From assembly GCA_900313815.1 (NCBI GenBank), contig OMST01000064.1, positions 1 through 52,604 of the forward strand: DNA of 52,604 bases. The letters are read 5' to 3'. Positions 5,072 to 36,756 of the stretch are shown here, piece after piece. The DNA is from an uncultured Eubacteriales bacterium (GTDB lineage: Bacteria > Bacillota_I > Bacilli_A > RF39 > UBA660). The notes below the pieces were generated by a model. That model was not told the origin of the DNA. It made no database searches and saw only the letters and a program-made list of their open reading frames with translations. Both the position numbers and the translations under genes were made by a program. Position 1 is the stretch's first letter; each line of letters opens with the position of its first letter.

Positions 5072-5091
5072 CAACAATATTTTTTTTCATA

Positions 5092-5125: not shown

Positions 5126-5131
5126 ATAGTA

Positions 5132-9550: not shown

Positions 9551-9572
9551 TATATTTTAGTATTTGAATAGA

Positions 9573-10211
9573 TTAAATTCCATGTTTAATTTTTCTTAAT
9601 CTTGCTTTAAATAAACTAGAAGTAATTAATGAAATTACAATCACTATTATTACAGGAATTCCCCAATTAAATAATATTTCTTTGAGACTATCTAGAACAG
9701 TTTTTTCTTCCTCTACTTTTTCTTTTTTTTCAATTTTGAATGAAGAATTGTAATTTTCTATTATAGATTTAAATAAAGTTTCATTAGGTTTAAATTGTAA
9801 GAATTTCTCACTACATATATTTAATTTGTCTCTATATTCATCACATCTACTATCATAATAATATGAATTATAATAATCAAATGTTATTGTGATATTTTTC
9901 ATGTAAGATTTGCAATCATCAAGTGGTGTTGAAATAGTAAAACTTGCTTTTTCCCCCTCTTTTATATCACTAATTATTATTTCATTATTAGAATCAGCAT
10001 GATAAGAAGAATTATTATATGATATATATACTCCATCATATACATTATAGAATGTTATAGAATATGTTTTATTGTTCTCATCGTATTGAGTTTCATAAGT
10101 AATATTACCTGCTATTTGGGAATGCTGTTGATATTTTTCATAGTTACAACTAGCATTAATATAAGATATAGATATAAATATTACCAGTAAAGAAAATAAT
10201 AATTTTTTCAT
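9573..10211 (-). CDS. type-I membrane protein, third and more divergent member of the 4-Cys family
   Basis: 212 aa with signal peptide …ISISYINA/SCNYE, four Cys in similar order, and C-terminal IPVIIVIVISLITSSLF followed by KARLRKIKHGI. It overlaps the upstream sortase gene by 4 nt. Confidence 0.75.
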   Translation of the reverse strand: MKKLLFSLLVIFISISYINASCNYEKYQQHSQIAGNITYETQYDENNKTYSITFYNVYDGVYISYNNSSYHADSNNEIIISDIKEGEKASFTISTPLDDCKSYMKNITITFDYYNSYYYDSRCDEYRDKLNICSEKFLQFKPNETLFKSIIENYNSSFKIEKKEKVEEEKTVLDSLKEILFNWGIPVIIVIVISLITSSLFKARLRKIKHGI

Positions 10212-20532: not shown

Positions 20533-21936
20533 TTATTTTTTCTTAATTCTTGCAACAAATATTTCTTCTAGTATAAATGATATTACTACACCTATTAATA
20601 GTGGAATATTATCCATAAGATATTCTAGTGTAAAATCACCGAATAGTGTGAATAGAACTCCAGCAATTAAAATTACAAATGGAACAATTGCAGCTATTTT
20701 AATCATAACTTTTCCACCTGGAACTTTATAAGGTCTTTCAGCATTTGGATCTGTCTTTCTAAGTTTTAAGAATGCTAAGAACATTGGAATATAACCAACT
20801 AATAATGTAATCCAGCTTAAGCAGAAGAATAAGCTAAATGATGCACTAAAGTCTTCACTAATTGCACTAGCAATGATTCCACCAATACAAATAATTGATG
20901 CTACTACACCATTAATTACAGCTGCTCTTGCAGGAACTCCTTCTTCATTAACACGACTAAATCCTTTTGGTAAACTTCCGTCATCAGCAGCATATTTAGC
21001 TACTTCATTAACTCCGAATGACCAAGATGCAATATTAGCAATAAATGTATAAATAAACATAAATCCACAAATAATTACTAATGTGTTCATTAATCCAGCA
21101 CCAATTCCAGCACTAGTAAATAATGAAGTTAACACTTCAACTACATTTTCAGGATCCATTTCAGCAACAACTTCTGGATCTAGCGCAATATTAAATCCTG
21201 TAGCTGGTAAGATATAGAATATAGCCATTAATAATCCACCAAAAATTAATGCTTTTGGTATTTGTTTCTTAGGATCATCCATATCGTCTACCCAAGTTCC
21301 TACTACTTCAAATCCCATAAAGTTAAATAAAATAATAGAAATAAATGGTAAACCTGTATCAATATTCAATGATAAATCAGGTAATAAATCTTTAAAGCTT
21401 GTAATTGGATTAGCACTATTACCAGTCTTCATAACAGTATAAACTCCTAAAAGACCAATTCCTAATAATAGGAATACTTTAAATGCAGTACCAATATTTA
21501 CAACGCCTTTACTTTCACCTATTCTCTTAGTACTTAAGAATGTTACTAGCCAAACATATCCAAGTTGAATTAATAACAATGCCCAAATACTAAGTTCAAG
21601 ATTAAACATTCCTGCTACTATATCTGTTACAGCAACAGCAAGTGATGAAATCCATAATGGGAAGTTAACCCAATAGTTCCATGCAACACGTCCAGCCCAT
21701 TTAGGACCAAATGCTCTTTTTACCCACTCGTACATACCACCTTCACTTGGATAAGTTGTACCAAGTTCAGCAGTAATCATTCCGTAAGGTAAACAAAAGC
21801 CAATTAATAATAAGATCCACCAAAAGTATTGAGTGTTTCCAATAGCTGCTGTAGGCATAACTGACTCACAAACTAATGTTAAACAAACAGTACCTAAAAT
21901 GGCATCAAACAATCTAAATTTTTTCTTCTTTTCCAT
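20533..21936 (-). CDS. aguD: APC-family amino acid/polyamine permease, probable agmatine:putrescine antiporter
   Basis: 467 aa with ~12 TM, located between ptcA and aguA as in lactic-acid-bacterial agu clusters. Confidence 0.7.
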   Translation of the reverse strand: MEKKKKFRLFDAILGTVCLTLVCESVMPTAAIGNTQYFWWILLLIGFCLPYGMITAELGTTYPSEGGMYEWVKRAFGPKWAGRVAWNYWVNFPLWISSLAVAVTDIVAGMFNLELSIWALLLIQLGYVWLVTFLSTKRIGESKGVVNIGTAFKVFLLLGIGLLGVYTVMKTGNSANPITSFKDLLPDLSLNIDTGLPFISIILFNFMGFEVVGTWVDDMDDPKKQIPKALIFGGLLMAIFYILPATGFNIALDPEVVAEMDPENVVEVLTSLFTSAGIGAGLMNTLVIICGFMFIYTFIANIASWSFGVNEVAKYAADDGSLPKGFSRVNEEGVPARAAVINGVVASIICIGGIIASAISEDFSASFSLFFCLSWITLLVGYIPMFLAFLKLRKTDPNAERPYKVPGGKVMIKIAAIVPFVILIAGVLFTLFGDFTLEYLMDNIPLLIGVVISFILEEIFVARIKKK

Positions 21937-21944
21937 TTTTTCTC

Positions 21945-22916
21945 CTACCTATTTTCTATAATTTTTAATGTTTCTTCTTCTTTACCCATAAAATATACAA
22001 GTAATGCTCTCATAGCAGTTAATCTATTTTCTGCTTCATCAAACACAATAGAATACTCAGAATCCATTACTTCATCTGTAACTTCTTCTCCTCTTGTTGC
22101 TGGAAGGCAGTGCATAAACTTAACTGTTGGACTGGCTTTTTTAATTTTAGCCATATCTACTTGATATTTTGGATAGAATATTTTCATTCTTTCTTCTTCT
22201 GGTAATTCAGATTCATATAATCCATACCATACATCTGTATAGATAAAGTCAGCATCTTTTAATGCTTCATCTTCATCTTCAGTAATTAAGAATGTTCCCC
22301 CAGATTTTTCACAATTCTTTTTGCATATTTCTTGAAAATGTTCATTTAATTGGAATCCCTTAGGTCCATATTGAACAAAGTGACCTCCTAAATGTGTAGT
22401 TAGCATTGCTAAACTAGCACATACTTGAGTTGCGTCTCCAAAAAACACTATTTTTAAATCTTCGAATTTTTTATCGGCTGGTTTATGTTCATAAATAGTA
22501 ATTAAATCTCCTAATTCTTGAGTTGGATGATTATAATCACTCATTCCATTAATAACTGGAACACCAGCATGTTCTGCTAGAGTAACTATTGATTTATGTT
22601 CTATAACACGTGCCATTAAGATATCAGTTAATCTTCCTAATACTTTAGCAGTATCATATAAACTCTCATGCGCACCCAATTGAATTTGTCCAGGAGCTAA
22701 ATATTGAGCATGTCCACCTAACTGAGTCATTGCTGTTTCAAATGAAACTCTTGTTCTTGTAGACTTTTGTTCAAAAACCATACCTAATGTTTTATGATGA
22801 AGTACATCTAAGTATTTACCAGACTTAATATACTTTTTAATCTTAATACCTAAATTCTTCATTCTTAATATCTCTTCTTTAGAAAAATCTTGAGTATCAA
22901 CAAAATTGCCCTTCAC
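21945..22916 (-). CDS. ptcA: putrescine carbamoyltransferase
   Basis: [39 protein letters not shown]. From memory, it closely resembles Enterococcus PtcA along its length. ORF opens at 22940, but GGAGG 7 nt upstream favours the GTG at 22916. Confidence 0.85.
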
Positions 22917-22994
22917 ACATTCACCTCCTTCCAAAAACATATCATTTATACTATGCTCTATTATAATTATAACTTTTTATTCTTTATTTGTAAA

Positions 22995-23993
22995 TTATTT
23001 TATTTGAGCCCAAACTTTATCATATTTAGAAATATTAAATCCTATATTTTTAACATAAGAACCATGCTCTAATATATAATTTAATTCTTCATAACTTAAA
23101 TTCATATTATTTATTGTTGTATTTATATATGGATATTCTTCAATTATTTTTTGTTGAACATCATCTCTTAATAAATAATCTATAAATCTATAAGCATTAA
23201 GTTTATTTTTGGCACCTTTTACTATTGCATAATTATCTAAACTAATAGCAAATCCATCACTTGGATATATTATTTCTATATTATCATTATAACTTTTAGC
23301 AATAGTTGCTTCTGCATTCCATATAACACCAATATCAACTTCATTAGTAATTAATAATGTTTTAGGGCTATCACTATCAAATGCTTTAACATTTGGATTA
23401 ATATTTAATAACCAATTCTTTGCTTTATTTAAAGCGTCTTCATTAGTTTCATTCATTTTATATCCATTAGCTTGTAAAGCCATTCCTATAACTATTCTTT
23501 GATCATCTAATAAAACTATATTATTTTTATATTTTGGGTTTAATAAATCATTATACTTAACTATATTATCTTTAATATGTTCTCTATTAACGCATAAAAC
23601 ACTAGTTGCTGCTAAAAAAGGAAGAGAATATTCATTGAACATATCAAATTCTTGATTTAAGAATAATGGATTTATATTATTAATGTTATATATCCTAAAT
23701 GTATCTATTTTATCTAACATATTTTTACTAATCATTAGTTCTATCATATAATCACTAGGAAATATTAAATCATAAGTACCCTCTTTAGAAGAAGATATTT
23801 TGGCAAGTAATTCTTCATTAGATGAATATGTCCCATAATTAACTTTAATACCTGTTTCATTTTGAAAATCAGTTATTACTTGATATGGAATATATGATGA
23901 CCAATTAAGTACATTAACTTCATTTTTAATACTATTATTAGTACAACCACTAAGAAATATAAATATTATTAAAACTATTATTATCTTTTTCAT
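22995..23993 (-). CDS. potD: spermidine/putrescine ABC transporter substrate-binding lipoprotein
   Basis: Lipobox FLSGC. PotD-like length. Last gene of a potA-B-C-D ordered operon. Confidence 0.8.
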   Translation of the reverse strand: MKKIIIVLIIFIFLSGCTNNSIKNEVNVLNWSSYIPYQVITDFQNETGIKVNYGTYSSNEELLAKISSSKEGTYDLIFPSDYMIELMISKNMLDKIDTFRIYNINNINPLFLNQEFDMFNEYSLPFLAATSVLCVNREHIKDNIVKYNDLLNPKYKNNIVLLDDQRIVIGMALQANGYKMNETNEDALNKAKNWLLNINPNVKAFDSDSPKTLLITNEVDIGVIWNAEATIAKSYNDNIEIIYPSDGFAISLDNYAIVKGAKNKLNAYRFIDYLLRDDVQQKIIEEYPYINTTINNMNLSYEELNYILEHGSYVKNIGFNISKYDKVWAQIK

Positions 23994-24775
23994 AATGCCT
24001 CTTTTCTTATCTTTCTACTTTGAATAATAGTAATTGATATTAATATAGTAAATGTAACTAACAACATAATAGTAGTAAGTGCATTAACATCAGGCGTTAT
24101 ACCAGTCTTAATAACAGAATAAATATATAATGGTAATGTTAAGCTTCCTGGTCCAGAAGTAAAATAACTAATAACAACATCATCTAAAGATAGTGTAAAT
24201 GCTAAAGTTGCTCCACTAACAATGCCAGGCATAATAGTTGGTAATATTATTTTAGTAAATGTTTTGAATGGACTAGCCCCTAAATCTTTAGCAGCCTCTT
24301 CTAACACCTTGGTTTGGCTTGTTAAATTAGATCTAATACTAACAATTACAAATGGTATTGAAAATGCTATATGAGATAAAATAATTGTAACTAAACTTAA
24401 TTGTAATTTCATTAATGTATATATAGATAATAATGATATACCTAAAACTATTTCAGGAATTACTATTGGTATATATATTAGTCCATTAATTAATTTTTTA
24501 AACGGAAATTCATATTTATATAGTCCATATGCAGATATAGTGCCAAGTATTGTAGAGGTTACTGTACTAATAACAGCCACTAATAAAGTATTAGAAAAAG
24601 CTTCTATTAAATCACTATTATGTAATATTTCTTTATACCAATCAAATGTCCAATTTTCAAAAATAATATTCATTTGAGAACTGTTAAAAGAATAAATAAT
24701 TAATACTATGATTGGTAAATATAAAAATAGAAAGACTAATATAACAAATAAATTGTTTAAAAACTTATTTTTCAT
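23990..24775 (-). CDS. potC: spermidine/putrescine ABC transporter permease
   Basis: 6-TM binding-protein-dependent permease with the EAA loop (EEAAKDLGASPFKTF). Confidence 0.8.
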   Translation of the reverse strand: MKNKFLNNLFVILVFLFLYLPIIVLIIYSFNSSQMNIIFENWTFDWYKEILHNSDLIEAFSNTLLVAVISTVTSTILGTISAYGLYKYEFPFKKLINGLIYIPIVIPEIVLGISLLSIYTLMKLQLSLVTIILSHIAFSIPFVIVSIRSNLTSQTKVLEEAAKDLGASPFKTFTKIILPTIMPGIVSGATLAFTLSLDDVVISYFTSGPGSLTLPLYIYSVIKTGITPDVNALTTIMLLVTFTILISITIIQSRKIRKEAL

Positions 24776-25632
24776 TAGAAACCTCCTAAATCATCAAGCT
24801 TACCACCAAGTTTTCTATATAACTTAACGAGTAAGAATGTAATTATTATTAGGAATATCGCTATAGCAGATCCAAAAGGCCAATTTCTAGCGGTTAAGAA
24901 TTGATTCTTAATAAGGTTTCCTATTATCATTATTTTTCCACCACCAAGGATATCAGTTATAAAGAAGAATCCTATTGCTGGAATAAACACCATTAATGAT
25001 CCATTAAATACACCTGATATAGTTTGAGGTAATATTATTTTAAAAAATATTTGTAATTTACTAGCTCCTAAATCTTTAGCAGCATCTATTATATTATTAT
25101 CTATTTCAAATACTGATGAACATATTGGAAGCAACATAAAAGGAAGTAAAGTATAAACCATACCTACTATTATTCCAAACCTATTATACATTAATGACAT
25201 TGGAGTCTTAATAATGCCCATTCCTATTAAGCCACTATTAATTATTCCACTTTTTCTAAGCAAAATAATCCATCCATATGTTCTTATTAATGAATTAGTT
25301 AAGAATGGTAACATAATTAATTTTGTTATTAAATTCTTTATATGAATATTTCTTTTTCTTAATATAATTGCAAAAGGATAAGAGATTAATATACAAATAA
25401 AAGTAGTTATCAATGCTATTGAAACAGACTTAAAAAATATATTTAAATATGTTGAATCAAATATATTTAAATAATTAGACAATGTAAATTCATATACAAT
25501 TCCACCATAAGAATCACTCTTGCAAAAACTTAAAAACAAAACATATACAAGAGGTAATAATATTAGTAAAAGTGTATAAACAATTACTGGTAACAAAAAT
25601 AATAATTTAAATGCTTTATTATTCTCTTTCAT
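24775..25632 (-). CDS. potB: spermidine/putrescine ABC transporter permease
   Basis: Permease with the EAA loop (IDAAKDLGASKLQIF). Overlaps potC. Confidence 0.8.
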   Translation of the reverse strand: MKENNKAFKLLFLLPVIVYTLLLILLPLVYVLFLSFCKSDSYGGIVYEFTLSNYLNIFDSTYLNIFFKSVSIALITTFICILISYPFAIILRKRNIHIKNLITKLIMLPFLTNSLIRTYGWIILLRKSGIINSGLIGMGIIKTPMSLMYNRFGIIVGMVYTLLPFMLLPICSSVFEIDNNIIDAAKDLGASKLQIFFKIILPQTISGVFNGSLMVFIPAIGFFFITDILGGGKIMIIGNLIKNQFLTARNWPFGSAIAIFLIIITFLLVKLYRKLGGKLDDLGGF

Positions 25633-25634
25633 TC

Positions 25635-26702
25635 TTATTTCTTTAATACCTCTATATCTTCTTTATCAAATGTTATATATACATCTTGACCATCTTTAAA
25701 ATCATTAATATCACTAATAGTAGATTTTAATGTATATTGATCATCTATATTAATATATAATTTAGTATTATATCCACTATAAGTAGAATCTATTATTTTT
25801 CCATGTATAGAATTTTTAACTTCTTTTATTTGTGGAAATACATCTTCGGGTCTAATAATTATTTTAACTAAGTCATTTTTATTAAATGATTTATTGGTTT
25901 TAATACTTATTTCTTTATTATTCATAAAAGATAATGTTAATATGTTATCTTTAATATTAACAACTTCAGCATCTAATATATTAGCTTCACCTATAAAATC
26001 TGCTACAAATACAGATTTAGGATGAGAATATACTTCTTGAGGAGTGCCTAATTGTTCTATTACACCTTGATTCATAATAGCAATTCTATCACTCATACTT
26101 AATGCTTCATCTTGAGCATGAGTTACATATATAAATGTTATCCCCAGTTCTTTTTGTATTCTTTTAAGTTCAACTTGCATATTCTTTTTAAGTTTTAAAT
26201 CAAGAGAACATAATGATTCATCTAATAATAATACTTTAGGATTCATAACAACCCCACGAGCTATAGCAACTCTTTGTTGTTGACCACCAGATAGTTCATG
26301 TGGATATCTATTTTCAAAACCTTTTAATTTAACTAAATCTATTACTTTTTTAACTCTTTGTTCTATTTCAGGTTTTGGTACCTTTTTCATTTGTAAACCA
26401 AAACTAATATTTTCAAAAACAGTCATTTTAGGAAATAAAGCAAAATTCTGAAAAATTGTATTTACTTCTCTTTTAGTAGCATCAACATTAGTAACATCTT
26501 TATTAGCAATAAACACCTTTCCAGTAGTAGCATCTTCTAGTCCAGATATTATCTTTAATACTGTTGTTTTTCCACATCCAGAAGCACCCAATAAAGTAAT
26601 AAACTCACCTTCATAAATATCCAGTGAAAAGTCCTTAATAACTGTTGTATCATCAAACTTTTTAGTAACATTTGATAATTTTACAATAACATTCTTTTCC
26701 AT
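25635..26702 (-). CDS. potA: spermidine/putrescine ABC transporter ATP-binding protein
   Basis: Walker A GASGCGKTT, signature LSGGQQQRVAIAR, Walker B LLLDE, C-terminal TOBE-like extension. Confidence 0.85.
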   Translation of the reverse strand: MEKNVIVKLSNVTKKFDDTTVIKDFSLDIYEGEFITLLGASGCGKTTVLKIISGLEDATTGKVFIANKDVTNVDATKREVNTIFQNFALFPKMTVFENISFGLQMKKVPKPEIEQRVKKVIDLVKLKGFENRYPHELSGGQQQRVAIARGVVMNPKVLLLDESLCSLDLKLKKNMQVELKRIQKELGITFIYVTHAQDEALSMSDRIAIMNQGVIEQLGTPQEVYSHPKSVFVADFIGEANILDAEVVNIKDNILTLSFMNNKEISIKTNKSFNKNDLVKIIIRPEDVFPQIKEVKNSIHGKIIDSTYSGYNTKLYINIDDQYTLKSTISDINDFKDGQDVYITFDKEDIEVLKK

Positions 26703-26799
26703 ATTACCTCTATTCTAATATCATTATACAAATATTATTTAACAATTACAATAAAATCACCTTTAAATATTTAATGAATATAATATTATGAGGTGAAAT

Positions 26800-27771
26800 A
26801 TGAAAAGAATAATTTGTATTATTATTGCTTTATTAATTGTTTGTACATTTTTTATAGTTTTTAGAAAAGATAATGAAAATAAAAAAATTACAGTGGCAGA
26901 AGTTACTCATTCAGTTTTTTATACGCCATGGTATGTAGCATTGGAAAATGGTTATTTTAAATCATCTGGTTTAGATATAGAAGTAATATTGACTCCAGGT
27001 GCTGATAAAGTAGCATCTTCAGTATTATCAGGAGATGCTCAAATTGGTTTTTCAGGTCCAGAAGCAACTGTATATGTCTATAATAATTCTACTGAGAAAC
27101 TTATTTCTTTTGCATCTTTAACTAAAAGAGATGGTCAATTTATAGTTGGGCCTTGTAAATTAAAAGATAAATTTAAAATGACAAATTTGATTAATAAAAC
27201 CGTTTTAGCAGGAAGAAGTGGTGGTATGCCATTACTAATGTTTAAATATGCATTAAAAGAGTCTAATATAGATGAAAAATTAGTTAATATTGATACATCA
27301 GTAGATTTTTCATCGCTAAGTGGAGCATTTATAGGTAAGCAAGGAGAATTTGTTAATTTATTTGAACCTACTGCTAATAAAATAGAAAAAGAAAAATATG
27401 GATGCGTATTATCGTCACTTGGAAAAATATCTGGTGTTGTTCCATACACAACTTTCTATGCTAAAGAAAAATTCATAAGTGAAAATGCTGATATAATTAA
27501 AAAGTTTAATCAAGCATTAAATAAAGGAATTAGATTTGTAAAAGAAAATGACGAGATAACTATAGCTAATTCAATAAAAAATCAATTTAATGATCTAGAA
27601 TTTGATGATTTAGTTACTGTTATAAAAAGATATAAAGATGCTGATTCATGGTATAACAGCACATATATTAATATAGATGATTATAATAGATTATTAGATA
27701 TCATGATGTATGGTAAAGTAATTGATGAGAAAGTAGATATTAATTTATTAGTTACAAATGAATACAACTAG
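26800..27771 (+). CDS. NMT1/THI5-like ABC substrate-binding protein (NitT/TauT family, SsuA/ThiY-like)
   Basis: 323 aa with an N-terminal anchor. First gene of a binding protein-ATPase-permease operon. Substrate unknown. Confidence 0.6.
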   Translation: MKRIICIIIALLIVCTFFIVFRKDNENKKITVAEVTHSVFYTPWYVALENGYFKSSGLDIEVILTPGADKVASSVLSGDAQIGFSGPEATVYVYNNSTEKLISFASLTKRDGQFIVGPCKLKDKFKMTNLINKTVLAGRSGGMPLLMFKYALKESNIDEKLVNIDTSVDFSSLSGAFIGKQGEFVNLFEPTANKIEKEKYGCVLSSLGKISGVVPYTTFYAKEKFISENADIIKKFNQALNKGIRFVKENDEITIANSIKNQFNDLEFDDLVTVIKRYKDADSWYNSTYINIDDYNRLLDIMMYGKVIDEKVDINLLVTNEYN

Positions 27772-28183
27772 TATTTTAAATGTAATCAATTTATCTAAAA
27801 CTTATCATAATGTTCCTGGAGAAACGATTGCTATAAAAGATATTAGTTTTAATATTAATAAAGAAGAATTTGTAGGCATAGTTGGGCCTTCTGGATGTGG
27901 CAAAAGCTCTATACTAAATATTATTAGTTCATTAGATAAAGATTATAAGGGAAAACTAGAGATTAATAAAAATATTAAGATAGCTTATATGTTTCAAGAA
28001 GATACTTTATTTCCATGGCTAACTATCTTAGATAACGTATTAATAGGTTTAAAGATTAAAAAAGAATTAACAAAAGATAACAAGATGTATGCTATAGAAT
28101 TATTAAAAAAATATGGTTTATATGATTTTATTAACAAATATCCAAGTGAACTTTCGGGTGGTATGAAACAAAGAGTTGCTTGA
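27758..28183 (+). pseudogene. 5' part of an interrupted NitT/TauT-family ABC ATPase gene
   Basis: Walker A GPSGCGKS, Q-loop, signature LSGGMKQRVA, then an immediate TGA at 28181-28183. There is no Walker B or H-loop. The missing half is at 35040..35381. Confidence 0.9.
28169..28181. repeat. attL core (13-bp direct repeat caaagagttgctt)
   Basis: Identical 13-mer at 35040-35052. It lies exactly where the ABC ATPase reading frame breaks. Confidence 0.85.
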
Positions 28184-28195
28184 ATTCTTTAAAGA

Positions 28196-28219
28196 CACAA
28201 AAAAAGCACTAAGTGCTTT
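28196..28219 (-). terminator. rho-independent terminator after the 797-aa gene
   Basis: agcac (28205-28209), loop taa, gtgct (28213-28217), flanked by A and T runs. Confidence 0.65.
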
Positions 28220-30613
28220 TTATTCTAAATGGGTTGTTTGATATGTAGTTCCACTTATAGTCTCTGTACCATCTACTCTTGTACTATTATCTTCTATTTC
28301 TGTAATTGTTCCGTTAATAGAAGCAGTTACACCTCTGATGGTTCCGTCATAGAACTTAAATATATTTGTATTATTAAGACCATATACCGCTCCAGTTATT
28401 GATGGAGAAGATGCATCAATATTACCATCCTTTACTCCCACTATTAATGTGGAAGTATTATTTACGCCATTTTGTCCGGTAGATTTAATTGTTCCACCTG
28501 TTATAGTCATAGTAGCTTCATTTAATACGGCTGGGAAAGATGCGGAAGGTGATGTGATTGTTCCCCCACTAATAGTTGTTATACCTTTATGATTTTGAAC
28601 ACTAGCTCTAGTTGGAGTAGCACCATTTCCACATGTTAAATATGGATTACCAGTTATAGTTAATGTACCACCATCATTATAAATGGCTTGTCTCTTTGTA
28701 GCAATTACTTCTCCTCCTGAGATTACCATAGTTGCATTATTTTCATTATTAATTAAACCTTGGTCTACCCCAGCGGCTGCCCAAATCTTTCCACCAGTAA
28801 TTGTTAGGTTTCCATAATTACGAATTACTTGGTATATATTTGATTTAATGTCGCCTCCCGAAATAATAAGACGTCCAGATCTTTCATTTTGAATAACTCT
28901 ATTTTGGTCATTAGCTCCATTACGTAATAGTATTCCATTTTTAATTTCAAGAGTACCTGAATTATCAAATAAATTACCAGAAGTACTACTAATAGAATAA
29001 TTTCCTATATCTAACTCTATGTTCTTACCAGATGCTACCACTATATTTTCATCAACTATATTATCTAATATTGTGATAGTGACTTTTACATTATCAGTGG
29101 CAACAGCATCAACTGCATCTTGAAGGAGTTCATATTTTGTGCCATTTATATCAGCAACATAATGATGATAAACTTCCCAGTGTGCAAATATTTCATCATC
29201 AGTATTAAATACAGTGCTTGCAGTTATTTCTGTTCCATTTTCTGGATCTGTGAACCATCCAATACAGTTAAACCCTATTCTTGTTGGAGTTGGCAATGTA
29301 CCTATAGTATTTCCTGGAGATATTTCTCTATATGGTTCATCAACACTTCCGCCATTGGCATTAAATGTAATGGTAATCTTTTGGCCTAATGAAATCTTTT
29401 TATATGTGCCGTCCCTAGCATGAAGTATTTCAGTACCAGTTTCAATATCATCAATTAAAGTTTCATCATTTACTGCATCAATTTTTCCTTCAATAATACC
29501 GTCATAAAATAAAAAATTAGATGTTGTATTTACTCCATAGGTATCACCTTTAATTAATGGAGAACTATTACTAGCATTTCCATCTTTAATGCCAATAGTT
29601 AATGTTCCTAGGTTATCTATTGCATGATAGCCAGTTGATAAAACCGTTCCTCCGGTAATATTAATAGTACCAGTTGCTAAGTTTTGAAGTGGCGCTCTTT
29701 CAGTAGTTACTGCACTCAAATATGCACTTCCACTAATATTTACTGTTCCCGCATTATATATAGCTTGTCTAGTACCTGTTGCAACTATTTTTCCTCCAGT
29801 AATATTAAGAGTTGCATTATTGTTAATAGCACCTTGAGTAGTATCAGAAGTGATAATACCATTATAAATATTCAGTACTCCATCATTGGTTATTACAGGA
29901 TTCTTTCCACTATTACTTAAAGTAAAGTTTTGAAGATTAAGTTTAACATTTTGATGTGCTACTATAGTTATTATTTCACTAGTATTATCAAGTAACATTA
30001 CTGTTGTTTGAGTATCATTCTTAGGCACAGCTTGAACAGCTGCTTTTAAAGTTGTATATCTAGTATTTCCAATTTTAGCAATATAATTTACTCTTTCAAA
30101 TATAAAATTCATACTTAATGCATAATTAGTATTACTACTATCATATTCACCAGATTTATAACCTATGGTTATTAATATTTCATCAGTTGCACCATAATTA
30201 CACTCATCATTTGTATTACAAAGAGGATCTCCCAAATTATAATTAGACATACTATACTCTAATTTGCTATCAAGCCCAGTGATATTAGATATTTTCATTT
30301 CTGTAGCGGAAAAAACAGTAGCATCTACTTTATATGTTACTGTTGAATCAGCACTTGGAAGATTAATAGAACTAAATATACTACTAACATTATATTCTTC
30401 GTTACTACTAGTCCCACCACTAGAAGTGCTATCTAATAACATTCCAGTAATTGTAGCATTTCCTCTAGGTTTTACACTAACCAATAGATTTTCTATACTA
30501 GTGTTAATAGTTGAATTGGCATACGCCAAAGAAAGTAATAATGAGCTAATTATTACAAAAGCTATTATTACTTTAATATACCTTTCAATATTATTTTGTA
30601 CTATCTTTTTCAT
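28220..30613 (-). CDS. large exported surface protein: TasA-like N-terminal module, duplicated beta-helix-like ITGG repeats, one Listeria-Bacteroides repeat
   Basis: N-terminal anchor/signal ending …SLAYANSTINTS resembles the 213-aa protein's signal. Two homologous ~230-300-aa blocks are rich in (I/L)(T/S)GG(K/T)I turns. Central ITFNANGGSV…GFNCIGWFTDPENGTEI matches the Flg_new/List_Bact repeat. Confidence 0.8.
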   Translation of the reverse strand: MKKIVQNNIERYIKVIIAFVIISSLLLSLAYANSTINTSIENLLVSVKPRGNATITGMLLDSTSSGGTSSNEEYNVSSIFSSINLPSADSTVTYKVDATVFSATEMKISNITGLDSKLEYSMSNYNLGDPLCNTNDECNYGATDEILITIGYKSGEYDSSNTNYALSMNFIFERVNYIAKIGNTRYTTLKAAVQAVPKNDTQTTVMLLDNTSEIITIVAHQNVKLNLQNFTLSNSGKNPVITNDGVLNIYNGIITSDTTQGAINNNATLNITGGKIVATGTRQAIYNAGTVNISGSAYLSAVTTERAPLQNLATGTINITGGTVLSTGYHAIDNLGTLTIGIKDGNASNSSPLIKGDTYGVNTTSNFLFYDGIIEGKIDAVNDETLIDDIETGTEILHARDGTYKKISLGQKITITFNANGGSVDEPYREISPGNTIGTLPTPTRIGFNCIGWFTDPENGTEITASTVFNTDDEIFAHWEVYHHYVADINGTKYELLQDAVDAVATDNVKVTITILDNIVDENIVVASGKNIELDIGNYSISSTSGNLFDNSGTLEIKNGILLRNGANDQNRVIQNERSGRLIISGGDIKSNIYQVIRNYGNLTITGGKIWAAAGVDQGLINNENNATMVISGGEVIATKRQAIYNDGGTLTITGNPYLTCGNGATPTRASVQNHKGITTISGGTITSPSASFPAVLNEATMTITGGTIKSTGQNGVNNTSTLIVGVKDGNIDASSPSITGAVYGLNNTNIFKFYDGTIRGVTASINGTITEIEDNSTRVDGTETISGTTYQTTHLE

Positions 30614-31775
30614 TTAATGTCTCACCATTAAAATCAGATGCTTTAATTACATATACATATATATTAATATCATTTATTACAAAGAATTCGCATTTTTGAT
30701 GAGGAGTTATAATATAATAATTTATAGGTTGGCTAACATTATCTCTAACATCAATTAATTCTTCAAACTTTTCCACTTCAATAACATTATATCCACTAAT
30801 ATCCGGTTTATTTTTAATATTAATTATTAATCTATCATATCCTCTTAATAATCTATTTACATATCTATCATATTTACTTTTACCGGTATTTGTTAAAGAT
30901 AATTTTTGTGCTAATAATATAATTGACACTATTACTAAAGTAAATAATATTCCACTAATAATTGCATATTGCTTATTTTTAACTATAATAGCTGAATTAC
31001 TAATTAATTGTTTTTCAATGTTAACATTTTTATTATCAAAACTTATGTTAATTTCTTGTTCAGATAATGGAATAATTAAAGTTGCTTTATTATTATTTAA
31101 AAGGCTATATGTATTTTCCTTTTTACTCCTTTCATTAACATAAAGAGTAACTTCTAGTCTACTAGATGTATTTACTGCATAATGGGACTTAAAATCATTA
31201 GCAAGTTGATTATAATAATCGTAATCAATTACTATATCTTTTTTATTTATCGAATAACCAAATGTATTATCTATATCTTCACTAATCTCTTCTGTTAAAT
31301 CATATTCTTTTTCAAAAAATACATTTGAATTACTTTGACTAGCAATTATTAATTTTGCTTTTACTACATATGAAACATATAAATTGCTTTCTTTATCAGC
31401 ATTAAATTTATATTCATAATTAATATGTATTTTATCTATTAAACTTGCTACATATGCCATACCTTTTCCAAGGTAATCTTCTTCATAAAAACTATTATCT
31501 TTTAAATATATCTTATAATCTATATCACTATTTTCAGTATAATTAATATATTGTCTTTTTGTTATAGAAAACGACATAATTGAAAAATATACAAGAGCAT
31601 ATATAAGAACAGCAATTAACATAATATTTAGAATTACTCTCATACTAAAACTATAATAAAACTTATTTTTAGTTGGCTTATCAAAAACATTTTCAGTAGT
31701 TACTTTTTTTTCTTCATCACTTTTTGTAGCACTTGTTTTCTTAACCGCTTTAGTTGTTTCTTTTTTCTTTTCCAT
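30591..31775 (-). CDS. two-TM membrane protein with a large external domain (DUF5305-like accessory protein?)
   Basis: 394 aa: Lys-rich N-terminus, TM (ILNIMLIAVLIYALVYFSIM), ~220-aa loop, second TM (AIISGILFTLVIVSIILLA), C-terminal domain. Family assignment is from memory only. Confidence 0.6.
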   Translation of the reverse strand: MEKKKETTKAVKKTSATKSDEEKKVTTENVFDKPTKNKFYYSFSMRVILNIMLIAVLIYALVYFSIMSFSITKRQYINYTENSDIDYKIYLKDNSFYEEDYLGKGMAYVASLIDKIHINYEYKFNADKESNLYVSYVVKAKLIIASQSNSNVFFEKEYDLTEEISEDIDNTFGYSINKKDIVIDYDYYNQLANDFKSHYAVNTSSRLEVTLYVNERSKKENTYSLLNNNKATLIIPLSEQEINISFDNKNVNIEKQLISNSAIIVKNKQYAIISGILFTLVIVSIILLAQKLSLTNTGKSKYDRYVNRLLRGYDRLIINIKNKPDISGYNVIEVEKFEELIDVRDNVSQPINYYIITPHQKCEFFVINDINIYVYVIKASDFNGETLNEKDSTK

Positions 31776-31784
31776 AAGTCCTCC

Positions 31785-32909
31785 TTATTTTTCATTAAAC
31801 CATACTGTTGGATATCCTATATAACGTATTCTTTGTTTAACGTTTCCAACAATCATGTCTTCTTTTATAACAAAGTCATCCATATTATTATTAGCATCCC
31901 CTTTTGTATATAATAAATATGAATCACCAAAGCTAACTTTTTTAGCTATTCTGTGTATTATAATTACACCTTCTTTTCTATATGCGATAATATCCCCTAC
32001 TTCTAAATTATTAAAAGAATATTTTTTATCTACAATAACAACGTCACCTTTGTTTATATTTGGACTCATACTACCAGTAGCAACTGCGATAGTATAAAAT
32101 CTAAAATATCCACTATAAAAATAAACTAATGTAAACACTAATATGGCCGGTACTATTGCGTGTTTAAGCTTAATAGCATGATAGTTACTTGATATTTTAT
32201 CATTCTTTTTAGCTTCATAAAATCTTAATATTTTAAATGCAAATAAAATTGGTACTATTAAATATATAATAGACATAACATATTCATTTATATTTGGCAC
32301 TATAGGCAAAATATATAAATATAATGAGAAAATTAAATCAAAAATTATTAGTGGCTTATATCCAATTCTTTTTGATATATATGAATAAGAAATGTTCTTT
32401 GATACAGCAGGTAAAAATGCAAGAGCAATAAACTTAAGAACATCATATTGCGAATTAAATAATGTGAAATAAAATGCATTTGAAATGTCTAATATAATAA
32501 ATAATATAATAACTATTATAGTGCAAAGCATATTATTGTCTGCTTTAGAAATCATATTATATCTAAGTATTTCTCTTAAAATACAATATAATATAATTGG
32601 AATTAGAATACCAGTTATATAAGGCATAGTTAAATAATTAGACGTCCAAGCTAATCCTACTACTAACCCTAATAAATAATATACTATAAAATATGTTAAT
32701 GAAAATAATAGTATTTCAAACAAAATATCTCGATAATATAATCTTCTATTTCTTTCCATTACAAATATTTGATTAAATACAACTAGAACTATTAATAAAA
32801 ATATAACTATCTTATATCCAGAAAATATATTTACGACAAAAGCATTAAATAAACTAAGGATAATTAATAATAGTGAAAAAATTAATAATCTTATATACCC
32901 CTTTTTCAT
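31785..32909 (-). CDS. SipW/ER-type (S26B) signal peptidase I fused to an N-terminal polytopic membrane domain
   Basis: C-terminal ATGSMSPNINKGDVV (Ser), IIIHRIAKK (His), TKGDANNNMDD, preceded by ~270 aa with about eight hydrophobic helices. GGAGG 6 nt upstream supports the ATG at 32909 rather than 32936. Confidence 0.8.
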   Translation of the reverse strand: MKKGYIRLLIFSLLLIILSLFNAFVVNIFSGYKIVIFLLIVLVVFNQIFVMERNRRLYYRDILFEILLFSLTYFIVYYLLGLVVGLAWTSNYLTMPYITGILIPIILYCILREILRYNMISKADNNMLCTIIVIILFIILDISNAFYFTLFNSQYDVLKFIALAFLPAVSKNISYSYISKRIGYKPLIIFDLIFSLYLYILPIVPNINEYVMSIIYLIVPILFAFKILRFYEAKKNDKISSNYHAIKLKHAIVPAILVFTLVYFYSGYFRFYTIAVATGSMSPNINKGDVVIVDKKYSFNNLEVGDIIAYRKEGVIIIHRIAKKVSFGDSYLLYTKGDANNNMDDFVIKEDMIVGNVKQRIRYIGYPTVWFNEK

Positions 32910-32978
32910 TCTATACCTCCATAAATATATAATCAAATATAGTTTAAGGCTTAAAATAGCCTTAAACTATAATATTGA

Positions 32979-33620
32979 TTAATCTGCAGAACCATAAGTC
33001 AATACTATATTAGGTAATGCTACAGTAAAGTTTCCATCAGCAACTGCACTTCCAGCGTCATAAGAAATAACTACTACAATCTCTTCAGCAGTATTTTTAG
33101 CTAATGTATGTGAAGAAATGGTTGCAACTGATGTTGTAGTTACAGCTTCATTGCCTACTTTAACGCTTAATGATATTCCATTACAAGCGCTATCAACAAG
33201 TGATTGAGTTGTTCCTGTTGCAGCAGTACATGTCTTATTTCCAGAGAAAATAATACTGTTTAAATAAGCAAGATACTCTCCAGCATTATATGCATAAAAA
33301 GTATATGTTGCTGATTGCCCTGGAGCTGTAAATGTTGCTTTCAAATTTGAGATTACAGGATCATTAGCGTTATCTATAGTAGCATTTGTTGCTGAAAATC
33401 CATTAACTACTGCACTCAATGTTGGTGTAATAGGATCAGTAGCAACTGCAGAAGAACTAGACGAAAAGTCAACATTAAATGTTGATGTATCAGGATGAAC
33501 CTCTGCTTGAGATGTAATAGTTAAAGTATTTGAGAATGCAGCATAACCAATTGTAACTCCAATAGCTCCTAATATTAAAGCAACTAAAGCAATAATCTTA
33601 TAAGTTTTACCGTCGTTCAT
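32979..33620 (-). CDS. TasA/BsaA-like exported protein with a SipW-type signal peptide
   Basis: N-terminal KIIALVALILGAIGVTIGYAAFSNTLTITSQ matches the G-x-(Y/W)-A-x-F-(S/D) cognate signal of SipW substrates. Ser/Thr/Ala-rich beta-type body. Adjacent to the SipW-like gene. Confidence 0.7.
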   Translation of the reverse strand: MNDGKTYKIIALVALILGAIGVTIGYAAFSNTLTITSQAEVHPDTSTFNVDFSSSSSAVATDPITPTLSAVVNGFSATNATIDNANDPVISNLKATFTAPGQSATYTFYAYNAGEYLAYLNSIIFSGNKTCTAATGTTQSLVDSACNGISLSVKVGNEAVTTTSVATISSHTLAKNTAEEIVVVISYDAGSAVADGNFTVALPNIVLTYGSAD

Positions 33621-33855
33621 TTTGTCACCTCCTACAAAAAGAATTGAATAAAATATCCTAGCTAGTGTATTTTATCAATATACATTATATCATTTTTTAT
33701 TAGTCATGTATATAAAATAATTCTATATATTTTTTTTACTAATATAATATTTTAAGGAGATAATATGGAATATATTTTAATACATAATAGGTTAAATAAT
33801 AAAAATATAAAACAGGTTATTAATACAAAAATATATAACATTATTAAACTAAACA

Positions 33856-35055
33856 ATGAACAAGATATTTAAAGTTGGAATATATTTAAGATTATCTAAC
33901 GAAGACAAAGATAAAAAGAATATTGATAGTGAATCAATAAAAAATCAAAGAAATATGTTAATAGATTATATAAATAAAAATGATAATTATATTCTTTATG
34001 ATGAATATTGTGATGAAGATCTTTCAGGAGCAGGAACGTATAGGCCTGAATTTGAACGTTTAATAAATGACTGTCGAAATAAGAAAATAGATATAGTACT
34101 TTGCAAAAGCCAATCTAGATTTTCAAGAGATATGGAAATAATAGAAAAATATATAAACAATAAATTTATAGAATGGAATGTTAGATTCATAAGTATTGCT
34201 GATAATGCTGATACAGATAACTATGGTAACAAAAAAGCAAGACAAATAAATGCTCTTGTTAACGAATGGTATTTAGAAGATATTTCAAATAATATAAGAA
34301 CTGCATTCAATTCTAAAATGAAGCAAGGTGAATTTATATCACCATTTGCTCCATTTGGTTATAAAGTATCAAAACAAAACAATAATAAGCTCGTTATAGA
34401 TAAAACTGCATCTATAATTGTTGAAGAAATATATAAATTATATTTAGATGGTTATGGTTTTACTTCTATTGCAAATATCTTAAATAATAAAAGAGTCCCT
34501 TCCCCTTCGCTATATAAGCATATGAATGGTATTAAGCTACATATAGTAACCAATAAAAAAATTGAAGATATAAAATGGAATAATAATGCTATTAAAAATA
34601 TATTAACAAACGAAATATATATAGGAAATCTAATTCAAGGAAAGAGAACTACTGTTAGTTATAAAAATCATAAGATTATTAAAAAAGATAAAAGTTTATG
34701 GATAAAAAAAGAAAATACTCAAGAACCTATAATAGATGGATATACTTTTAATAAAGTGCAAAAGCTAATTAAAAGAAGAACAAGAACTATTAAATCAACA
34801 AATAAAACACATATATTATCTGGAATTGTCTTTTGTAATAATAATCATTTAATGACAATTAAAAACTCTGGAAAACATTTATATTTAGTTTGTAAAAAAT
34901 GTAAAACCTCTATAAGGTATGATTATTTAGAGCAAGAAATACTAAATAAATTAAATAATAAATATACTACATTAACAAGATCAATAATAGATGATCTAGT
35001 CTTAAAAATAATAATTAATAAAGATGTACTTATAACATTCAAAGAGTTGCTTTAA
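33856..35055 (+). CDS. large serine recombinase (integrase of the island)
   Basis: Resolvase-type N-terminus VGIYLRLSNEDKD (Ser nucleophile), a recombinase domain, and a C-terminal Cys pairs region (C…CKKC). Its last five codons plus stop (35041-35055) overlap the attR core and end 3 bp beyond it. Confidence 0.9.
   Translation: MNKIFKVGIYLRLSNEDKDKKNIDSESIKNQRNMLIDYINKNDNYILYDEYCDEDLSGAGTYRPEFERLINDCRNKKIDIVLCKSQSRFSRDMEIIEKYINNKFIEWNVRFISIADNADTDNYGNKKARQINALVNEWYLEDISNNIRTAFNSKMKQGEFISPFAPFGYKVSKQNNNKLVIDKTASIIVEEIYKLYLDGYGFTSIANILNNKRVPSPSLYKHMNGIKLHIVTNKKIEDIKWNNNAIKNILTNEIYIGNLIQGKRTTVSYKNHKIIKKDKSLWIKKENTQEPIIDGYTFNKVQKLIKRRTRTIKSTNKTHILSGIVFCNNNHLMTIKNSGKHLYLVCKKCKTSIRYDYLEQEILNKLNNKYTTLTRSIIDDLVLKIIINKDVLITFKELL
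35040..35052. repeat. attR core (13-bp direct repeat caaagagttgctt)
   Basis: Identical to 28169-28181. Confidence 0.85.
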
Positions 35056-35381
35056 TCAGAACACTTGCTATAAAACCAGATATATTATTATTAGATGAAC
35101 CATTTTCAGCATTAGATTATCAAACCAGATTAAAAGTATCAGATGATGTCTATAAAATAATTAAAGAAGAGAAAAAATCTGTCATAATAGTTACTCACGA
35201 TATATCTGAAGCTGTATCGATGTGTGATAAAATTATTGTCCTATCAAATAGACCATCAACAATTAAGAATATATATAATATTCATCTAGATAATAAATCA
35301 ACTCCGTTGAAGAATAGAGAATCTTCTAATTTTTCAGATTATTATAAAAATATATGGAAGGATATAGAACATAATGTCTAA
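35040..35381 (+). pseudogene. 3' part of the interrupted ABC ATPase gene
   Basis: Reading from 35040 gives QRVALIRTLAIKPDILLLDEPFSALD (Walker B, D-loop) …VTHDISEA (H-loop). The stop at 35379-35381 overlaps the permease ATG at 35374. There is no start codon of its own. Confidence 0.9.
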
Positions 35382-36150
35382 AGAACAATTAATTTTCTTA
35401 AGAAAAAATAAAATATATAAAGTATCTATTTTATTAACTCAAATATTATTATTTCTAATATTTATATTCTTATGGCAATATCTATCTGATAATAATACTA
35501 TTAATTCTTTTATTATGAGTAATCCATTTAAAATAATTAATACTTTAAAACAATTATATATTAATAATAATCTATTTAATCATATATTTATCACATTAAA
35601 AGAATGTATTATATCTTTTATATTAACTAATATTATTTCTTTCATAGTAGCAATTATAATGTTAGATAATAAATTCATAGCTAAAGTTTTAGAACCATAT
35701 TTAATAGCATTAAATTCACTTCCTAAAGTAGCATTGGGTCCTATAATAATTATATGGATTGGAGCAAATCAAAAAGGAATTATTACAATGGCACTATTAA
35801 TATCATTAATTGTTAGTATACAAAACTTATATAATGCATTTGTATCAACAGATAAATTAAAAATTAAATTGTTAAAAACCTTTAATGCTTCTAAAATAGA
35901 TATATTATTGAATGTAATAATACCATATAATAAAGATAACATTTATAATACATTAAAAATAAACTTATCAATGTGTCTTATTGGTGTTATCATGGGAGAA
36001 TTTTTAACATCTAAAGCTGGTATTGGATATTTAATACTTTATGGTTCTCAAGTATTTAATTTGAGCATAGTTATGAGTGGAATATTTATATTAACTATTA
36101 TTTCTATATTTTTATATTTAATAATTAATATAATAAAAAAAGTCTTTTAG
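35374..36150 (+). CDS. NitT/TauT-family ABC transporter permease (SsuC/ThiX-like)
   Basis: 258 aa, 6-TM binding-protein-dependent permease. Translationally coupled to the 3' ATPase fragment. Confidence 0.75.
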   Translation: MSKEQLIFLRKNKIYKVSILLTQILLFLIFIFLWQYLSDNNTINSFIMSNPFKIINTLKQLYINNNLFNHIFITLKECIISFILTNIISFIVAIIMLDNKFIAKVLEPYLIALNSLPKVALGPIIIIWIGANQKGIITMALLISLIVSIQNLYNAFVSTDKLKIKLLKTFNASKIDILLNVIIPYNKDNIYNTLKINLSMCLIGVIMGEFLTSKAGIGYLILYGSQVFNLSIVMSGIFILTIISIFLYLIINIIKKVF

Positions 36151-36157
36151 ACTTTTT
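36136..36157. terminator. bidirectional hairpin terminator between convergent genes
   Basis: aaaaagtc / gacttttt stem around a tttta loop. Confidence 0.6.
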
Positions 36158-36756
36158 TATATGTTTCCATGTTCATTTTGTATTTCTGACATTCTTTTTC
36201 TCATAGATAATACTTTACCAAATTTATAAACATCATAAATAATAATTATTAATACTGGAACAGCTAGTAATCCTAACCAAGCAAGTTTAGAAGATAATAC
36301 TGATTGCATATTTCCTACTTTAGGAACTACTAATATAACTTTACCAATAATATTAGGTTGCACTACTGTTTCGGTAATATCATTTTCAGAATTACCTTTT
36401 ACATCTATAGTATTATCATCATTTACTTTTATAACTCTATTAGTCAATATACTAAATCCATCAAATATATTTAATGAATAATAAGTAATAATATCATCTT
36501 TTTTTAAATTTTTAACACTTGTTTTTAATGTTAATACAACATCATATGCTTTTATTTGAGGTTCCATTGTTTCATTGGTTACAGTATATAAGCCTACTAA
36601 TGGTGCATTATTCTTTTTATCTGATAATGCAGCATTTATATATAAGAAAACCAAACCAAAAATAATAATAATTAAGAAAACAATTATTATCCACAAGATA
36701 CTCTTAGATATAGTTCTAAGAAGTTTTTTTCTTTTTATTGTTTTATCTTCTTCCAT
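36157..36756 (-). CDS. SipW-like (S26B) signal-peptidase homolog with substituted catalytic positions
   Basis: N- and C-terminal TMs. It aligns to the island peptidase: NETMEPQIKAYDVV vs TGSMSPNINKGDVV, TNRVIKV vs IHRIAKK, KGNSENDITE vs KGDANNNMDD. Confidence 0.6.
   Translation of the reverse strand: MEEDKTIKRKKLLRTISKSILWIIIVFLIIIIFGLVFLYINAALSDKKNNAPLVGLYTVTNETMEPQIKAYDVVLTLKTSVKNLKKDDIITYYSLNIFDGFSILTNRVIKVNDDNTIDVKGNSENDITETVVQPNIIGKVILVVPKVGNMQSVLSSKLAWLGLLAVPVLIIIIYDVYKFGKVLSMRKRMSEIQNEHGNI

Follow-up and report, generated by a model that had tools for sequence, protein, structure and literature searches.

How does the gene for a nutrient importer's ATPase come to be interrupted in one strain of a gut bacterium, and does the interrupting DNA serve as a switch of this gene or as a mobile element that uses the gene as its landing site? 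These questions are raised by the 52,604-nucleotide contig OMST01000064.1 (assembly GCA_900313815.1; the whole stretch is hereafter called the window) of an uncultured Eubacteriales bacterium of the RF39 lineage, in which an ATP-binding cassette (ABC) ATPase gene is split by an island of 6871 bp with a serine recombinase gene at its right end (Table 1). The initial annotation of this locus had compared the island to the skin-like intervening elements of sporulating bacteria and considered either a recent insertion or a reversible genetic switch. As set out below, the island has exact limits, is absent from near-identical strains and occupies a site that is common to dozens of related elements, and its recombinase belongs to a clade that lost the coiled-coil of its relatives. 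We consider it likely that the locus harbors a small integrative island of a site-specific family, neither conjugative nor phage-derived, whose short recombinase is still active.

A precisely bounded island in an importer ATPase gene

The clean split of the ATPase gene that had been described is readily seen: its open reading frame (ORF) runs to …LSGGMKQRVA and is closed by a TGA that comes from the left end of the island, and the 13-mer CAAAGAGTTGCTT occurs in exactly two copies on the + strand, one at each junction. Allowing for up to one mismatch, there are 3 matches compared to 0.06 expected by chance, and the likeness of the two junctions reaches 17 nt with one mismatch. Removing one copy of the repeat together with 6871 bp indeed restores an in-frame ATPase, though of 250 rather than the proposed ca. 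254 amino acids, in which Walker A, signature, Walker B and H-loop follow each other in the correct order (Pfam ABC_tran 5e-31) and whose stop codon overlaps the permease start. The adjoining binding-protein and permease genes are intact as reported, and the importer is of a nutrient type with an NMT1-like binding protein and a NitT/TauT-type ATPase. When the site is occupied, the ATPase is almost certainly non-functional because its N-terminal fragment ends one codon past the junction and its C-terminal fragment offers no in-frame start before codon 198. The island does not differ in G+C content from the remaining window (26.6% vs 25.9%), and the window is chromosomal, with metG and its T-box leader only 1.5 kb away.

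The empty site itself is represented by three contigs (L001-L003) that read …ggtggtatgaaaCAAAGAGTTGCTTtaatcagaacac… with flanks 99.4-99.5% identical to the window and with the same gene order. They encode an uninterrupted 250-aa protein (P0001) to which the spliced ATPase is 100% identical, and alignments of the window with these contigs break exactly at the repeat with a 17-nt overlap that contains one mismatch. The occupied form recurs in at least four further independent assemblies (L004-L007) at 99.6-99.9% identity, and the truncated 141-aa product is encoded on 12 contigs vs 2-3 for the intact protein, so the interruption is no assembly artefact. Thus, strains of one species differ by a genuine insertion with exact limits, and the island's boundaries fall on the repeat in every other copy examined. 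Near the junction, empty and occupied alleles differ by only ca. 0.3%, which places the gain or loss within the species and long after the subclade of elements to which the island belongs arose. To speak of a recent insertion is nevertheless not quite right, as this subfamily has diverged to 73-88% recombinase identity at the same site across host lineages.

Table 1. Coordinates of the interrupted importer genes, the island and its attachment sites in the window.
Feature	Position	Strand	Evidence
Substrate-binding protein gene (NMT1/THI5-like), intact	26800..27771	+	Pfam NMT1 7e-17; 99-100% identical in empty-site loci
ATPase 5' fragment, 141 aa (Walker A, Q-loop, signature LSGGMKQRVA)	27758..28183	+	= P0001 residues 1-141
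attL: host B arm, 13-nt identity 28169-28181, element P' arm TGCTTGAATTCTTTAAAGACAC	28144..28207	+	attP dyad symmetry; L011/L051 mismatches
Integrative island, 6871 bp crossover to crossover (28182-35052 in the convention of the initial annotation)	28177..35047	.	precisely absent in L001-L003; same ends in L004-L007
Intrinsic terminator hairpin at island left end, after the 797-aa gene	28201..28221	-	
Cargo gene 4: 797-aa secreted/surface protein, Listeria-Bacteroides (Flg_new) repeat	28220..30613	-	Pfam PF09479 2e-11; also in chromosomal operon copies
Cargo gene 3: 394-aa membrane protein, DUF5305	30591..31775	-	Pfam PF17231 6e-9
Cargo gene 2: polytopic membrane domain fused to SipW/archaeal-type signal peptidase I	31785..32936	-	NCBIfam TIGR02228 8e-22, SipW 4.5e-16
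Cargo gene 1 (p213): 213 aa, N-terminal hydrophobic helix ending …GYAAFSNT, beta-sandwich body	32979..33620	-	AlphaFold2 pLDDT 89
Palindromic box ATAAAATATCCTAGCTAGTGTATTTTATCA between the divergently oriented genes for p213 and the recombinase	33648..33677	.	kept in L008, L011, L012, surroundings not
Coiled-coil-less large serine recombinase, 399 aa	33856..35055	+	Pfam Resolvase 1.1e-21 (residues 9-159), Recombinase PF07508 1.5e-21 (residues 188-308)
attR: element P arm, 13-nt identity 35040-35052 with GT at 35046-35047, host B' arm TGCTTTAATCAGAACAC	35008..35078	+	
ATPase 3' fragment, 109 codons (LIRTLA…, Walker B ILLLDEP, H-loop VTHD)	35052..35381	+	100% = P0001 residues 142-250
Permease gene, intact	35374..36150	+	Pfam BPD_transp_1 5e-16

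A family of elements at a single site

Around 45 loci with related recombinases at the same ATPase codon were gathered from gut metagenomes and metagenome-assembled genomes (MAGs) of uncultured Bacilli. The nearest relatives of the window recombinase (P0129-P0136) are proteins of 381-399 aa with 73-88% identity, called short forms in the following, and wherever DNA is available (L008-L013, L086-L091 and L156) the same five-gene element sits in the same orthologous ATPase codon. This element is found in at least five diverged lineages with recombinases that are 76-88% identical. Beyond the short forms, a genome scan with the ATPase turned up four MAGs of Bacilli (L049-L052) with a 537-543-aa relative (66-69% identity) and wholly different cargo at this same codon. 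Scanning metagenomes for the recombinase yielded 70 loci; in at least 31 the recombinase lies directly upstream of an ATPase C-terminal half that starts at the junction residue, five more share the attR sequence, and most others run off the contig. Across the ca. 45 loci, recombinases include long forms of 514-544 aa and one further coiled-coil-less form of 412 aa (L112), and the elements measure 2.3 kb (L112) to 7.9 kb between mapped junctions, with L096 reaching ca. 9.5 kb by a cruder estimate. One site that is common to dozens of related elements with unrelated cargo makes a site-specific mobile-element family, widespread in uncultured gut Bacilli, a well-supported conclusion. Large serine recombinases (LSRs) of the DUF4368 type mostly target multiple sites (PMC10083194), which makes this family with its one site in one orthologous gene unusual in its specificity. 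No relatives of the recombinase were found in the viral contigs of IMG/VR, which together with the lack of phage genes on the island speaks against a phage origin.

Several loci deviate from this pattern in their own ways. The right flank differs in only one of the 70 loci (L137), where a long-form relative with the usual attP-type left arm continues at position 12580 into non-ATPase sequence (…CAAAGAGT|TGGTTTAGTCATATT…) that may represent an alternative integration site. In an Erysipelotrichaceae MAG (L045, 1472-4817), the orthologous ATPase gene is split elsewhere, around residue 194 and just past the H-loop, by an insert of ca. 3 kb whose serine recombinase is unrelated (28% identity) and lies on the opposite strand, so this gene seems to be a repeated target. 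At L051 (7279-16641), the binding-protein gene, the ATPase N-terminal half and attL are inverted and lie 5 kb downstream of the permease gene, with recombinase, attR and the ATPase C-terminal half in their usual place; either there was an inversion that had one of its ends within the element, or the MAG is misassembled. At two more loci with the same attR (L104, 12569-12650; L106, 8366-8450), the ATPase C-terminal half ends after …LLLDEPF, which points to another break in this gene only a few codons farther downstream.

Attachment sites and crossover

The attachment (att) sites were rebuilt for five lineages by joining the left part of attR to the right part of attL for attP, and the left part of attL to the right part of attR for attB, which for the window element gives …ATGAAACAAAGAGTTGCTTTAATCAGAACAC… as attB and …ATAACATTCAAAGAGTTGCTTGAATTCTTTAAAGACAC… as attP. 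In long-form elements, attP shows dyad symmetry about the GT at positions 7-8 of the 13-mer, amounting to 22/30 in L050 and L052 and to 19/30 in L051. The motif AAAGACAC occupies arm positions 15-22 in attP, and (A/C)CAC lies at positions 14-17 in attB, i.e., ca. 5 bp nearer to the center. An offset of this size between attP and attB is characteristic of the different placement of the zinc-ribbon domain on the two sites in LSR-DNA structures. In the window, the P arm of attR lies within the 3' coding sequence of the recombinase gene, and AAGTACAT replaces the family's AAAGACAC.

Mismatches between the two junctions of single elements narrow down the point of strand exchange. The attL and attR of L011 differ at positions 5 and 9, and those of L051 agree only at positions 1, 4-8, 10 and 13, so the shared dinucleotide can only be AG (6-7) or GT (7-8). 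Substitutions in attR to the right of the GT are silent for the ATPase (GTT>GTA, GCT>GCC), and those to its left fall on the side of the crossover that comes from the element; the A>G found in L008 is silent in the recombinase frame and would turn a conserved Arg into Gly in the ATPase frame. We therefore infer that the crossover is the GT in CAAAGA-GT-TGCTT, which corresponds to positions 28175-28176 in attL. A crossover in the last four bases of the repeat (GCTT), which had been considered based on the L011 mismatches, is ruled out by the dyad symmetry and the L051 junctions. The third match to the repeat in the window (CAAAGAGTTGCTA, 26264-26276 on the - strand) has one mismatch to the att core and lies in the signature motif of the adjoining PotA-type ATPase gene, where it constitutes a potential secondary att site that is unoccupied in the window.

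A large serine recombinase without coiled-coil

The serine recombinase announced for the right end of the island is indeed encoded there, though not in the typical large form, as it comprises only 399 aa and has no coiled-coil. The residues expected for LSR catalysis (R12, S14, R88 and R91) are invariant across 72 relatives. Its zinc ribbon is matched weakly by Pfam Zn_ribbon_recom (E = 0.0025, below cut-off), but an AlphaFold2 model (pLDDT 77) contains a confident zinc-ribbon beta-ribbon at residues 320-399 (pLDDT 83-90), and the zinc site C-x3-H…C-x2-C is kept in all short forms. The coiled-coil could not be mapped by sequence because PDB sequence matches of a long form covered the catalytic domains only, and AlphaFold2 and Foldseek were used instead. 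Compared to the 514-544-aa relatives, the window protein has an internal gap of ca. 135 aa (alignment with 71 relatives), and its model shows only a 9-residue loop at 366-374 where the coiled-coil would be expected. The segment absent from the short forms is heptad-rich in the long forms and bears DUF4368 (PF14287), a domain that is present in most relatives at 63-72% identity and absent from the window protein and all short forms; the final strand is retained (IIDDLVLKIIINKDVLITF, compare IIDEFIDKIYIGK…IKIKW in long forms). By Foldseek, the whole protein aligns to 535-aa integrase-att complexes (E = 4e-20), and the integrases matched in the PDB have 486-596 aa vs the 381-399 aa of the short forms. 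In a neighbor-joining tree, the short forms are a single clade that is sister to the likewise coiled-coil-less 412-aa protein of L112, and both stand beside the long forms. Judging from alignment and tree, the short-form clade has lost a coiled-coil/DUF4368 segment of ca. 135 aa (399 vs ca. 530 aa). The closest characterized matches by structure or sequence are a Clostridioides difficile conjugative-transposon recombinase (3g13) and TnpX (2mhc); the best NCBIfam matches, XisF and CcrB, are both far below their cut-offs (Ccr 92.6 vs 900 bits).

The recombinase gene is physically tied to the attachment site, as its ORF passes through the right-hand repeat, the att core makes up its last five codons TTC AAA GAG TTG CTT (FKELL), and host DNA supplies its stop codon (35053-35055). 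In the circular form, the ORF would extend by 16-25 codons, to 418 aa ending in …EFFKDTKKALSAFYSKWVV for the window element, and the terminator hairpin at the left end of the island would then follow the recombinase ORF as well.

The cargo is a host-type operon

Besides the recombinase, the island encodes only four surface or secretion proteins, and none of its five genes has a match to phage, replication, relaxase or defense genes in Pfam or NCBIfam. The same four-gene operon is found at ordinary chromosomal positions with no recombinase nearby in L081-L085, so we interpret the window cargo as a captured copy of a host-type operon. The start of cargo gene 2 is placed ca. 9 codons later by gene callers, which would yield 374 aa. 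The first cargo protein, p213, has homologues in at least 420 clusters and no match in Pfam or NCBIfam. Its Foldseek neighbors, namely an archaeal bundling pilus (7ueg), a Sulfolobus filament (7pnb) and the TasA fibre (8aur), are all donor-strand filament subunits. It seems a reasonable guess from the model that p213 is a candidate SipW-processed fibre subunit, with "TasA-like" remaining a suggestion because these matches are all sub-threshold.

Some noncoding features of the operon may be regulatory. The palindromic box upstream of p213 is a possible operator, and a hairpin with a 14-bp stem between p213 and the SipW-fusion gene (32938-32971) may be an attenuator that favors an excess of the first gene, i.e., of the putative major subunit. 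A promoter scan was uninformative in this AT-rich DNA (61 matches vs 70 expected). A stand-alone SipW-type signal peptidase gene of the host (199 aa; 36157-36756, - strand) directly follows the permease gene in both empty and occupied alleles. One of the Bacilli MAGs with the chromosomal operon also encodes GerA/GerAC germination-receptor proteins (L081, 3356-4836), which makes it probable that at least some bacteria of this uncultured group form spores.

Activity of the element and alternative explanations

The ratios of nonsynonymous to synonymous substitution rates (dN/dS) indicate purifying selection on the recombinase (0.09-0.15 between short-form lineages) and on both halves of the ATPase, which are intact ORFs in every occupied lineage (0.08-0.27). 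With dS values of 0.5-2.2, close to saturation, any dating is unreliable. The recombinase tree is roughly congruent with the host genes but the cargo is not, and the pair with the most similar cargo (L008 and L012, 82-91%) has the most divergent host genes (47-65%).

An integrative island with an active recombinase would work as follows. The family's recombinases, LSRs of the TnpX/TndX-like, DUF4368-bearing clade, would recognize an attB of ca. 45 bp in the coding sequence of the ABC signature region (…LSGGM(K/R)QRVA|LIRTLA…) of one NitT/TauT-type importer ATPase and exchange strands at the GT of the core. Integration would cut and inactivate the ATPase gene after codon 141, and the reverse reaction would restore it exactly. 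In the derived subclade of the window element, the coiled-coil/DUF4368 segment has been lost, a copy of the four-gene operon serves as cargo, and the recombinase gene now borders the core, which turns the left arm of attP into coding sequence and the core into the last five codons of the gene. That the short recombinase could work is suggested by analogy to a coiled-coil-deleted LI integrase (Int-deltaCC), which has lost its directionality, shows low-level LxR and PxB recombination independent of a recombination directionality factor (RDF) and prefers intramolecular over intermolecular reactions (PMC5499577; PMC10754689), and to TnpX and TndX, which are bidirectional without accessory factor (PMC2475636; PMC5704250). 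By the same analogy, the short recombinase would act without RDF and with low efficiency and would favor intramolecular excision over intermolecular integration, so that the element may mostly be inherited vertically with occasional precise loss and rare transfer.

Several observations weigh against this interpretation. The two empty haplotypes, 16 differences apart, share three single-nucleotide polymorphisms (SNPs) within ca. 500 nt of the junction, which suggests one old event of gain or loss that was spread by homologous recombination rather than frequent switching. Horizontal movement as a short form is ambiguous, as the incongruent cargo could have been exchanged with chromosomal copies. 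A degenerate pattern of the attP junction that covers both right-arm length classes, searched for as the circular junction called for by the initial annotation, had 0 matches in JGI metagenomes and 0 in IMG/VR, and exact look-up of five predicted excised-form recombinases (including those of 418, 412 and 406 aa) showed them to be absent from a collection of 15 billion proteins. The left arm of attP is degenerate in short-form elements (AAGTACAT not AAAGACAC), with a symmetry of 15/30 in the window and 10/30 in L011, and phiC31 integrase is inactive without its coiled-coil (PMC10754689). Finally, no transfer functions (relaxase, oriT or phage genes) were seen on the island, where an oriT is not excludable by sequence alone.

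A regulated intervening element, whose controlled excision would reconstitute the ATPase and turn the importer on as known from skin/sigK, SPbeta/spsM, gin/gerE and the fdxN element, would account for exact excision, for the maintenance of the subfamily in this site across diverged hosts and for the higher frequency of the occupied allele in assemblies; moreover, the group may sporulate given the GerA-type genes of a related host, and gin provides a precedent that is not phage-derived (PMC5595907). The intact and selectively maintained ATPase halves in every occupied lineage fit such a scenario as well, but they are equally explained by insertions that are young compared to pseudogene decay or by occasional excision. 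However, the target is a nutrient importer gene without developmental link, there are no sporulation genes in the window, and the element has no conserved small ORF as candidate for an RDF. A 35-aa ORF that overlaps the recombinase start (33765-33872) was considered for this role and dismissed, as it falls within a window-specific insertion and is missing from L008, L011 and L012. The excision products were not detected in the three collections searched, and a site that is common to many related elements with unrelated cargo fits the attB of a mobile element better. For these reasons and in view of the SNPs shared by the empty haplotypes, we do not follow the initial annotation in viewing the island as a skin-like element or reversible switch and regard controlled excision as unlikely.

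The same SNPs and the failure to find a circular form would also be expected of an immobilized relic with a dead recombinase that is inherited vertically, in which case the empty allele would be ancestral or the result of one ancient loss and merely be shuffled by homologous recombination. The inactivity of phiC31 integrase without coiled-coil, the degenerate left arm of attP and the fact that island genes and host genes have diverged to a comparable degree point in this direction, too. Yet a dead gene should decay, and the recombinase is intact in at least nine clusters of 73-88% identity with its low dN/dS and with catalytic residues and zinc site kept. Similarly, neither half of the split ATPase gene shows decay in any of the lineages, the difference of only ca. 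0.3% near the junction means that the alleles separated within the species and long after the subfamily arose, and the phylogeny of the cargo is incongruent with that of the hosts. An inert island therefore strikes us as improbable, and the integrative island with a still active short recombinase remains our preferred explanation.

For such an active recombinase, one can further imagine that the short-form clade represents a functional LSR which evolved naturally to dispense with both coiled-coil and RDF; as its own gene spans attP, each integration or excision would provide it with a different C-terminal tail and stop codon. The two resulting isoforms, 399 aa ending in FKELL when integrated and 418 aa when circular, would then sense the integration state and set the direction of recombination in place of coiled-coil and RDF, which is a rather doubtful though specific proposal.

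Comparison to known elements

Members of the family share the broad recombinase clade of Tn4451/Tn4453 and Tn5397 (TnpX/TndX), with DUF4368 in the long relatives, and resemble these transposons as small cargo elements with short direct repeats, a 2-bp crossover and no need for a directionality factor (PMC2475636, PMC5704250). Unlike Tn4451 and Tn5397 with their low target specificity and genes for mobilization or conjugation, the family described here is strictly site-specific in nearly all of the ca. 45 loci and has no transfer genes that we could see, and the window recombinase lacks both DUF4368 and coiled-coil. As a rule, elements with a serine recombinase insert into dispensable genes and thereby disrupt them (PMC5704250; PMC10083194). 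Site-specific integrative and mobilizable elements (IMEs) of Firmicutes with serine recombinases (e.g., those targeting rumA) and the gene-targeting LSR clusters of Durrant et al. 2022 are similar in that one serine recombinase directs integration into conserved coding sequence, the gene is disrupted, and diverse recombinases and cargo use one attB (PMC5704250; PMC10083194). In contrast to these IMEs, which have a relaxase or oriT of their own, neither was identified in the window island; with regard to the target, the literature consulted does not mention the signature-motif region of an ABC ATPase, and the term "ABC" does not occur in the text of PMC10083194.

The developmental elements skin (SpoIVCA/sigK), SPbeta (SprA/spsM), gin (GirC/gerE) and the fdxN element (XisF) likewise are LSR elements that interrupt a gene and rebuild its frame by precise excision, and gin, like the window island, is a non-phage element. 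Unlike the nutrient importer with no sporulation genes nearby, the genes that they interrupt serve only a terminally differentiated cell (mother cell or heterocyst), and their excision is developmentally controlled and involves a directionality factor, for which the window island has no conserved candidate. The staphylococcal cassette chromosome (SCC) with CcrAB or CcrC is comparable as a strain-polymorphic cargo cassette without transfer genes that is moved into one conserved gene by nothing but large serine recombinase(s), but its insertion at the 3' end of rlmH does not destroy this gene, and Ccr proteins are full-length. The only experimental model for the 399-aa protein is the engineered coiled-coil deletion of the A118-like LI integrase, a three-domain LSR that also lacks nothing but the coiled-coil (PMC5499577, PMC10754689). 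Yet this protein was made in the laboratory from a distantly related phage integrase, whereas the short form is natural and evolutionarily maintained and its activity can be proposed by analogy.

Other features of the window

A second presence/absence polymorphism adjoins the island: the same-species contig L003 and the L086 lineage both lack a stretch of ca. 6 kb upstream of the transporter (20640-26751), which carries genes for agmatine deiminase, an amino-acid permease and ornithine transcarbamylase as well as a potABCD-like operon. Farther away, positions 613-11836 of the - strand carry two ORFs of ca. 1240 aa without Pfam match, each followed by an ORF of ca. 228 aa, and downstream of these a 212-aa ORF and a 542-aa sortase-domain protein; this group of genes may encode surface proteins or a pilus of unknown type.

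Implications

With respect to this one genome, the finding is mostly ordinary, as an importer that is dispensable was inactivated by a site-specific island that only some strains carry; for its annotation, the two ATPase fragments should be merged conceptually and the island flagged. The cargo shows a host-type SipW/fibre operon that was captured onto a mobile cassette. What is of wider use is that comparative sequence alone suffices to infer the half-sites of attP and attB as well as the crossover dinucleotide, and that ca. 45 related recombinases of roughly 380-545 aa on one attB provide a ready-made series for studying or engineering site recognition by LSRs. In current models, the coiled-coil is the core of the control over synapsis and directionality, and here a subclade without it is still under strong purifying selection. 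If active, its short recombinase would be an unusually compact integrase and show how far an LSR can be minimized. The main interest of this otherwise known kind of element thus lies in a natural clade of coiled-coil-less LSRs together with a well-defined series of att sites.

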